Of a stretch of 18,713 bases of DNA, positions 3,564 to 5,005 are shown piece after piece (the stretch's first letter is position 1; the number at the start of each line of letters is the position of its first letter). The position numbers and the translations under genes were made by a program. This DNA is from a virus. The stretch lies in the UHGV virus genome UHGV-0067992; one strand, written 5' to 3'. The notes under the pieces are model-generated. The model was given only the letters and a program-made list of their open reading frames with translations. It searched no databases and was not told the origin of the DNA.

Positions 3564-4556
3564 ATGAAGAAAAAATACGAACTGGTTGTTAAAGGGATAA
3601 ATAATTACCCGAATAAGATTACTGTTACTGTGGCACTGGAAATTGGTGGGTATCCGTCACTGTTGTTGCCAGATGTGGCGATTAGTCTTGACCGTACTGA
3701 AGGTGCCACGCTGGAGTTTTACGAAGCTGAGGCGAAAAAGCAGGCGAAGCAGTTTTTCATGGATATTGCTGCCGGGTTATGTGAAGGGGATGAACCGTTG
3801 CCAGAAAAGCGCCCCATAATTTTAGAGGCGCAGGATGTGTTGATAACCTACAAAGGAAAGCTACCGGGAAGAATTACTGATGCTCTGAAGATGCCGCCGT
3901 CAACACTGCGGTCAGAAAAAGATGATATTGAATCACGCATTGAAAAACTGGAGTGCTGTGTTACTGAATTGAAAAAAAGCATCCCAACAAAAAATGAGGT
4001 GCTTGCAGCAGATGAAATGAAAGAAACTATTCTTGAATTAGCTGCGCGCCTGAACTGCGCTTCACTGTTGAAAGAGCATTTTCAGCAGCCTGAAAAAAAA
4101 CGCCGCGATGAGCAGCAGTTTGCGGCGTTTTACGATTATTGCCGGAAAGTGATGAGCAGAAATCTCGCAGAGTGTTTCAGTATTCATAATGATAATTTCA
4201 GTGAGCTGGAATGGGAGTGTAACCGGCCATCCTTTGTTGTATCCGGTGATGGTGGGAAAATAACCATCTCAGAAAATGGGAAAGTAACACCTCCATCGCA
4301 CCAGCACAGTGAGGAGCTCATTGAATTTGCCATTGATTACCTGAAGAACAATAAAAAGCAGGGGCTGATGAAGCGCGTTGGCCGTTGCATGGGATATCTG
4401 CAGGTAGCTGCTGAGATTGAAGCGCTTGCCAGTGGTGCAGACAGGGATACTGCGGTGCGTGAGGTCCTTCTTCGTGATTTCAATACTCCGCCCTTTAAGA
4501 AAGAGCCTGATGGCTGGCTCCAGCCGGGGCTGAATTATCTCAAAGGGCGGATATAA
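3564..4556 (+). CDS. Hypothetical protein, 330 aa, unknown function; low-GC insert between holin and endolysin
   Basis: ATG 5 nt after the S stop with SD GGAGAG; long uninterrupted frame; Glu/Lys-rich predicted helical region (EKDDIESRIEKLECCVTELKK); no TM segment or catalytic motif recognised. Confidence 0.7.
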   Translation: MKKKYELVVKGINNYPNKITVTVALEIGGYPSLLLPDVAISLDRTEGATLEFYEAEAKKQAKQFFMDIAAGLCEGDEPLPEKRPIILEAQDVLITYKGKLPGRITDALKMPPSTLRSEKDDIESRIEKLECCVTELKKSIPTKNEVLAADEMKETILELAARLNCASLLKEHFQQPEKKRRDEQQFAAFYDYCRKVMSRNLAECFSIHNDNFSELEWECNRPSFVVSGDGGKITISENGKVTPPSHQHSEELIEFAIDYLKNNKKQGLMKRVGRCMGYLQVAAEIEALASGADRDTAVREVLLRDFNTPPFKKEPDGWLQPGLNYLKGRI

Positions 4557-4562
4557 GTACTG

Positions 4563-4877
4563 TTATCTGTTACCTGATAATTGTCTGAACAGGCGATCTT
4601 TTTGTGATTTGGCGTAATGATTATCCCATTCGCAATCAAGGTAACTTAATTCTTCATTTAACCAGTCATCTATATTGTCTTTCAGGCGAAGGAGCAAGGT
4701 TGGTGTTAATGCTCCGGATATAATACTGAGAGTTGCAGTAGTGAGAGCTCCATACGGTTCAGCCTGAATGGCCTTTACTGCTTCGTGTTCTTGCGGGAGG
4801 AGTAAAAGGCATTCCGATTTTACCCGCTCATTTATGGCTTGCAGGCATAAATCATAATTATGTTGATCGTTATGCAT
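4563..4877 (-). CDS. Hypothetical protein, 104 aa, unknown function; convergent partner of the 330-aa ORF
   Basis: ATG preceded on the minus strand by GAGGA about 7 nt upstream; stop lies 6 nt from the stop of the 3564-4556 ORF; low GC. Confidence 0.55.
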   Translation of the reverse strand: MHNDQHNYDLCLQAINERVKSECLLLLPQEHEAVKAIQAEPYGALTTATLSIISGALTPTLLLRLKDNIDDWLNEELSYLDCEWDNHYAKSQKDRLFRQLSGNR

Positions 4878-4890
4878 GGTTAATCCTCTA

Positions 4891-4914
4891 CTGAAATTGT
4901 CAGATATATTTCAG
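4891..4914. promoter_or_regulatory. Perfect 7-bp inverted repeat CTGAAAT-N10-ATTTCAG in the leader of the reverse 104-aa gene (candidate operator)
   Basis: Read directly; located 14-37 nt upstream of the minus-strand start codon. Confidence 0.3.
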
Positions 4915-5005
4915 CCATCAGGAAAAACGCCAGTGTCCTACCTCTGGCGGGCTGAAGATTTAACATATCCAGGGATTCGGAACCGATAAATCCTGATAAA
5001 TATCC

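Follow-up and report, generated by a model that had tools for sequence, protein, structure and literature searches.

The viral genome UHGV-0067992 is represented here by a stretch of 18,713 nucleotides (nt; hereafter, the window), in which a pair of convergent genes occupies positions 3564-5005, between the pinholin gene S and the endolysin gene R. The first, ORF330 (an open reading frame, ORF, of 330 amino acids, aa), encodes a long-form member of the YdfR family; the second, ORF104, lies antisense to it and encodes 104 aa. The locus is an accessory slot of the lysis cassette formed by an S21-type holin and a signal-arrest-release (SAR) endolysin in the lambdoid prophages of E. coli, of which the window has the most complete version known. 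Across bacterial genera, ORF104 is inherited together with the conserved C-terminal domain of ORF330, here called the E-module. Confidence is high in this descriptive account, which covers the family assignment of ORF330, the character of the slot, and the E-module/ORF104 pair as a conserved unit. The cross-genus pairing was missed by the original prediction, an earlier reading of the same locus.

A conserved pair of E-module and ORF104

Relatives of ORF104 were recovered by profile search from Salmonella (49% identity) and from metagenomic contigs (40%), and in both settings the convergent neighbor carries an E-module. The Salmonella partner (locus L122) is a 254-aa protein with an E-module 45.5% identical to that of the window (E value 3e-25), and the stop codons of the two genes overlap by 4 nt. 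The metagenomic partner (L125) is an E-module alone, 125 aa long and 35% identical (E value 2e-16), with stops 6 nt apart, as in the window. A further lineage with the pair (L210) comes from IMG/VR. In Salmonella and L210, an HP1-family or other holin comes immediately after the pair, and then an endolysin and Rz, while in the metagenomic contigs the pair sits upstream of a GH108 endolysin. The pair is always next to, and co-directional with, lysis genes in E. coli, Salmonella, and metagenomic phages.

The association is nearly without exception when viewed from the side of ORF104. An adjacent, convergent E-module was found beside it in 60 of 61 distinct contexts (365 loci), the exception being an E-module with a frameshift, and all 95 of the 95 ORF104 copies have a partner that ends in the E-module C-terminus. 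Viewed from the other side, the E-module occurs without ORF104 in 103 of 171 contexts, and this asymmetry means that ORF104 depends on the E-module and not the reverse. Sequence identities of the two also correlate across pairs (r = 0.98, n = 7). The 603-nt junction class that has the E-module only looks like the result of a deletion between ACC(T)GATAA repeats, which flank ORF104 at window positions 4573 and 4992, and the loss of ORF104 looks like a derived state.

ORF104 (4563-4877, minus strand) codes for a protein and is under selection. All 104 codons are intact in 38 copies, in which 28 of the 49 differences fall at codon position 3 and the ratio of non-synonymous to synonymous substitution rates (dN/dS) is 0.22-0.36; the median over 95 copies, representing 18 alleles, is 0.31. 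No long plus-strand ORF spans the region. The AlphaFold2 (AF2) model is a confident five-helix bundle with a predicted local distance difference test score (pLDDT) of 92.8, and the protein is acidic and soluble, with no transmembrane (TM) segment (maximum KD19 1.49) and no signal sequence predicted. Searches of Pfam, NCBIfam, and PADLOC returned no match to ORF104, its only family match being an unannotated PHROG, and fold searches with the model returned no informative structural neighbor. The original prediction had recognized neither protein, which holds for ORF104 beyond that PHROG and does not hold for ORF330, as described below. ORF104 is rare, being present in 97 of 5,426 complete E. 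coli genomes, and every copy there is annotated as "hypothetical protein".

The ORF104 leader (4878-4927, minus strand) contains a Shine-Dalgarno sequence (SD), GAGGA, located 6 nt ahead of the ATG (TCCTC at 4884-4888 on the plus strand). Between this SD and the segment preceding R lies a perfect 7-bp inverted repeat, CTGAAAT-N10-ATTTCAG (4891-4914), a possible operator or RNA hairpin. These leader features are kept in the junction classes that bear ORF104. No terminator was identified for ORF104 in the window, and an Rfam scan of positions 3200-5300 matched no RNA family. In Salmonella (L122) and L210, two strong intrinsic terminators in the direction of the late operon bracket the pair (6133-6112 and 4887-4869 on the minus strand of L122; 4404-4425 and 5775-5793 on the plus strand of L210). 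One is tR'-like and precedes the head gene, and the second separates the holin from the 5' end of the ORF104 homologue; the window has no equivalent.

ORF330 (3564-4556, plus strand) is a YdfR-family (DUF1327) protein. Its residues 1-100 match the Pfam domain DUF1327 (PF07041) with 148.9 bits against a cutoff of 25 (E value 4.9e-44), its full length matches phrog_1085, and homologues of 268-333 aa already carry the name "YdfR family protein". Its ATG lies at 3564, 4 nt past the S stop, and its ribosome-binding site, GGAGAG, located 7 nt 5' of the ATG, consists of the last S codons (GGA GAG); ORF330 is translationally coupled to the S stop. The two convergent stops are separated by a spacer of only 6 nt (4557-4562). 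The original prediction was therefore correct on both ORFs, their SDs, the holin-coupled start, and the stop spacing, apart from a gap of 5 nt between the S stop and the ATG that measures 4 nt.

Family alignment divides ORF330 into three parts. The head, or module A (aa 1-75; 3564-3788), matches PF07041 and is 47% identical to YdfR of E. coli K-12; AF2 models it as three strands and a long helix (pLDDT 62-90 over aa 1-73) and has a dN/dS of 0.28. Foldseek searches with the head gave weak, non-significant matches resembling double-stranded-RNA-binding domains. The middle, modules B-D (aa 76-214; 3789-4205), comprises a linker, a coiled-coil, and a variable insert; this is where the length differences among homologues fall, and the AF2 model is helical there, with a pLDDT of <50. 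Finally, the E-module (aa 215-330, 116 aa; 4206-4556) is defined by the alignment and by homologues that occur as stand-alone proteins. It is marked by the motifs LGRxMGxLQVAAEIE and NPPFK..W..PG..YLK and has a dN/dS of 0.16-0.35. Both the head and the E-module are thus under purifying selection. A possible origin of the E-module as a diverged repeat of the head was rejected, as BLASTP gave no alignment between them. Like ORF104, ORF330 is predicted to be soluble, with no TM segment or signal sequence.

Few proteins belong to the E-module family: it has 21 representatives (50% clustering) among 1.84 billion proteins, and scans for distant members in species-representative genomes, IMG/VR, and metagenomes yielded almost exclusively the E. 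coli types and one new lineage, L210. Distant members have the same overall architecture, in which a variable middle joins a DUF1327-like head to an E-module at the C-terminus. Because this arrangement is shared by distant relatives, the long, two-domain protein looks ancestral and the short YdfR proteins, including that of K-12, look like truncations. Scans of the distant E-module proteins against Pfam, NCBIfam, and defense-system models gave nothing above threshold, and sequence-profile searches of the PDB found nothing.

A mosaic slot between holin and endolysin

To place the pair in context, S-R junctions were surveyed with the holin alone as the anchor, giving 80 IMG/VR loci, 69 of which have both S and R; all counts out of 69 refer to this set. 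R comes directly after S, with a gap of 5-8 nt, at 10 loci, and the junction is occupied at the other 59. A head-only YdfR gene is the content at 35 loci, head plus E-module at 9, and the E-module without a head at 10, while ORF104 is additionally present at 4 and other content is found at 1. A DUF1327 head is present in the slot at 47 of the 69. Junction comparison revealed gaps spanning 5 to 1449 nt and at least nine module combinations, and the window, at 1449 nt, has the longest form in the survey. Whichever gene comes after S, R included, starts in the same manner, GGGGAGAG-stop-N3-4-ATG. Taken as a whole, the S-R slot is a mosaic hotspot, and a YdfR-family gene coupled to the S stop is its usual content. 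The exact ORF330/ORF104 pair is rare (4 of 69 loci, together with the 97 complete E. coli genomes noted above).

These results alter how the locus was first understood. The site is variably occupied, as anticipated, but it had been held that the endolysin normally follows the holin directly and that a foreign cassette had been wedged into a contiguous S-R unit. Direct succession is confined to the 10 loci above, the Qin prophage of K-12 itself has the order essQ-ydfR-rrrQ, and the slot is usually filled by a YdfR gene. Likewise, the ORF330 family is a conserved part of this cassette type, found at 47 loci, while the exact pair, at 4, is not. The compositional argument was overstated. Exact guanine-cytosine (GC) content is 0.445 for 3564-5005 (0.459 for ORF330 and 0.406 for ORF104), compared to 0.542 for S and 0.511 for R, such that the dip amounts to 7-10 points rather than the 15-20 first estimated. 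Rz is equally low, at 0.454, and the break over the whole region is mild.

E. coli B1-56 (94.6% over the region) and one IMG/VR contig carry the nearest public copies of the locus. In the B1-56 copy (L006; NZ_AP040249, 2029569-2029904), the Prokaryotic Genome Annotation Pipeline (PGAP) calls the ORF330 gene an incomplete YdfR-family pseudogene, and tblastn detects all five modules there. The gene is intact in the window.

Other junction classes contain antisense genes of their own. At least five further ORFs, unrelated to one another (~86-210 aa, each with a good SD), lie just upstream of R at positions equivalent to 4563-4927 of the window (loci L063/L066, L044/L050/L075, L002, L052/L120, and L042/L007-L011), and each comes after a different YdfR-family C-terminus. 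None of the five had a match above threshold in Pfam, NCBIfam, or defense-system models, and divergence among their alleles is too low for selection to show. Two matches obtained during these searches, one to a Col-Pyo DNase from an alternative YdfR C-terminus (E value 0.038) and one to DUF1823 (E value 0.023), fell below the cutoff and were discarded. In L007-L011 and L042 the order is permuted, with S followed by a 213-aa protein of coiled-coil and E-module without a head, a separate 75-aa DUF1327 gene (33% identical to the window head), an unrelated antisense gene of 95 aa, and R.

Most occupied classes also share a segment of ~78 nt immediately before R, identified by junction comparison (4928-5005 in the window), whatever antisense gene is there. 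It contains a GC hairpin that is degenerate in the window, with GCCAG (4928-4932) and CTGGC (4943-4947) separated by N10, as opposed to a stem of 7 bp elsewhere. R has no obvious SD. The segment is a candidate for the antisense promoter (which would be of non-consensus type), for the translation-initiation region of R, or for both; a recombination boundary is a further possible role.

Possible functions of the pair

The only experimental data on the family concern E. coli K-12, where two-hybrid analysis and co-purification showed that the first 72 residues of YdfR mediate its binding to the catalytic, N-terminal half of RNase E; YdfR was also found to co-purify with DNase-resistant nucleic acid/RNA (PMC13232886). 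By extension, ORF330 may be a late-expressed protein that attaches to RNase E or RNA, with the antisense-encoded ORF104 controlling its E-module, a reading that is favored here tentatively and at somewhat less than even confidence. The Q-dependent late transcript would yield ORF330 alongside the lysis proteins; the head of ORF330 would dock on RNase E or RNA, and the E-module would carry an effector or regulatory activity. The ORF104 protein would be the cognate binding partner of the E-module, most likely an inhibitor, and its gene would have a weak or regulated promoter of its own, within the pre-R segment and active as long as the late genes are not transcribed. There is no room for a terminator between ORF330 and ORF104, and their transcripts must therefore overlap. 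From this geometry, head-on late transcription after induction, and the antisense RNA that results from it, would silence ORF104 and free the E-module.

Several observations weigh against this proposal. Overproduction of YdfR changed the transcriptome little (PMC13232886), and RNase E binding was shown only for a YdfR homologue with 47% identity. The binding of ORF104 to the E-module is proposed from their co-inheritance. In scans of four lineages, the window among them, ORF104 had no consensus sigma-70 promoter, and its expression in the lysogen is for this reason an assumption. The AF2 model of ORF330 has an overall pLDDT of 47.9, with only the head modelled well and part of the E-module moderately. 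Finally, the slot is empty in 10 of the 69 related phages and the E-module so often lacks ORF104 that none of the components, nor the locus itself, can be essential.

An alternative view, judged unlikely, is that ORF104 is an independent lysogenic-conversion moron, for example one for superinfection exclusion or anti-phage defense, unrelated to ORF330 and linked to it by insertion history. The moron concept is reportedly that of Juhala and Hendrix, and bor of phage lambda is a lambdoid moron that is antisense to the late operon. Like bor and similar genes, ORF104 is small, has its own SD, runs against late transcription, and is present or absent between conserved late genes in otherwise collinear phages; in these respects the moron-like layout first proposed for it, and its reality as a gene, were upheld. 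Several unrelated antisense ORFs share its position in other junction classes, and the sense-direction terminators that bracket and insulate the pair in Salmonella and L210 are also often seen around morons. Unlike bor, however, ORF104 encodes a soluble protein without a lipoprotein signal and is obligately paired with a late-strand gene. It was never found without an adjacent E-module, intact or in one case frameshifted, and the pairing has outlasted both divergence to 35-50% identity and a move from the S-R junction to other holins and the GH108 endolysin. The defense function once suggested gained no support, as no PADLOC model matched either protein (0 hits at E <= 1 for both).

The location of the pair could instead indicate a device for lysis timing, in which ORF330 acts on the pinholin or the SAR endolysin as an antiholin or releasin would, and is itself restrained by ORF104. 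The pair is within or beside the lysis cassette in every lineage, ORF330 is coupled to S, and a genetic screen cited in PMC13232886 flagged K-12 ydfR for envelope integrity. This explanation is nevertheless doubtful, since the pair is found with three lysis systems that are unrelated to one another (S21 pinholin, HP1-family holin, and GH108 endolysin) and is missing from many phages whose S and R are the same, both proteins lack a TM segment, a signal sequence, and a lysis-category PHROG, and the sole documented partner of the head is the cytoplasmic RNase E (PMC13232886).

Gene order suggests a third possibility. Pore-forming colicin operons have an activity gene, a convergent immunity gene, and then a lysis gene, an order and set of orientations matched by the window, and release is tied to a lysis function in both. 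By this analogy, the variable C-terminus of ORF330 might be an effector and ORF104 its antisense-encoded protector, akin to toxin-immunity or toxin-antitoxin systems. The C-termini of YdfR-family proteins are polymorphic, with a different antisense ORF in each class, and the E-module and ORF104 are strictly cognate. Such an arrangement is considered improbable, given that no colicin, toxin, immunity, or toxin-antitoxin domain was detected (Pfam, NCBIfam, and PADLOC), that ORF330 has no receptor-binding or translocation domain, and that ORF104 lacks the TM helices of immunity proteins to pore-formers. In addition, the putative toxin is frequently found without its putative protector, in the 103 of 171 contexts given above, and the other antisense ORFs are not demonstrable as selected genes. 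Finally, the slot is extremely mosaic, with truncations and frameshifts, and the copy nearest to it in E. coli, that of B1-56, carries a pseudogene annotation; the locus might accordingly be decaying filler, mosaic debris between S and R without a current function. This is very improbable in view of the dN/dS of 0.16-0.36 for the head, the E-module, and ORF104 alike, the intact copy in the window, and the conservation of the pair across genera.

If the proposed control of the E-module by ORF104 is taken further, the two might represent a two-component system of temperate-phage late operons that has gone unrecognized, in which an effector made late is brought to the RNA-decay machinery by the DUF1327 head, a cognate inhibitor is encoded antisense to it, and head-on late transcription serves as the switch. 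This extension is speculative and judged improbable. Were it true, the inhibitor already present in a lysogen could also neutralize the effector that a related superinfecting phage brings in, a form of exclusion, and the S-R slot would be a polymorphic locus in which each variable YdfR-family C-terminus has its own antisense partner.

Known counterparts, surrounding genes, and significance

The window shares much with the Qin prophage of K-12. YdfR (b1555) has the same Pfam domain and occupies the same coupled slot, between an S21-type holin and a lysozyme (essQ-ydfR-rrrQ-rzpQ), and the downstream neighborhood is also the same, with an Rz with DUF2514, a csp gene, and a DUF1398 gene. By contrast, K-12 YdfR is a 103-aa, head-only protein with no E-module or antisense partner. 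A closer counterpart is found in the Stx2-converting phage 86, where S is followed by a 268-aa YdfR-family protein with an E-module (gp05; orf5), an antisense 104-aa gene (gp06; orf6), and R; the same pair is present in the Stx2-type prophages of O104:H4 and 55989. These copies lack modules C and D, giving a gap of 1267 nt rather than 1449 nt, and compared to the window their E-module is 82% and their ORF104 78% identical. They are annotated only as "YdfR family" and "hypothetical".

The window as a whole is a lambdoid late region. A NanS-p-type esterase gene (672-2630) and a DUF826 gene precede S (3344-3559, plus strand), which encodes a 71-aa S21-type class II (pin)holin (PF04971, E value 9e-33; holin PHROG). 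R (5006-5539, plus strand) encodes the 177-aa SAR endolysin (PF00959, E value 4.7e-25) and is followed by Rz (5536-6033), a Qin-like cold-shock island, and the terminase, portal, head, and tail genes. In composition, the window breaks most sharply at this low-GC island (29-39%) downstream of Rz, at 6000-8500, and not at the S-R cassette. It contains a cspA-type thermoregulator 5' untranslated region (Rfam RF01766, 112.8 bits; 6250-6635, plus strand) ahead of a cold-shock protein gene (6396-6608), and an antisense, ydfO-like DUF1398 gene (7607-8032), organized as in K-12 Qin (rzpQ-cspI...ydfO). Further downstream, a 739-aa ORF (13143-15362, plus strand) combines ClpP-type protease and phage capsid domains, a fusion of prohead protease and capsid; as its called extent runs into the end of the called portal ORF, its TTG start was probably placed too far upstream. 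At the opposite end, positions 1-600, upstream of the esterase, are also low in GC (32-41%) and contain a 111-aa minus-strand ORF (91-426) without a Pfam match. This is the site of stx genes or other cargo in related phages.

The genes themselves were already in public records and the ORF330 family already had a name; what looks new here is the two-domain ancestry of YdfR and the E-module/ORF104 pair. A search of the literature found no description of the ORF330/ORF104 genes, the two-domain ancestry, or the pair beyond the RNase E screen (PMC13232886), and no functional study of the YdfR/antisense pair of the phage 86 type.

The S21/R21 lysis cassette releases Shiga toxin from Shiga toxin (Stx) phages and is present in most E. 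coli genomes, and YdfR is its commonest accessory gene family. Seen as a truncated remnant, which is what it looks like, K-12 YdfR would place the RNase E-binding result in a new frame and provide a concrete pair for study. Outbreak strains of O104:H4 carry that pair, and both material and public RNA-seq data therefore exist. If the pair affects late-mRNA stability or the timing of lysis, it would bear on the release of toxin and phage; otherwise, it would be an ordinary accessory locus.

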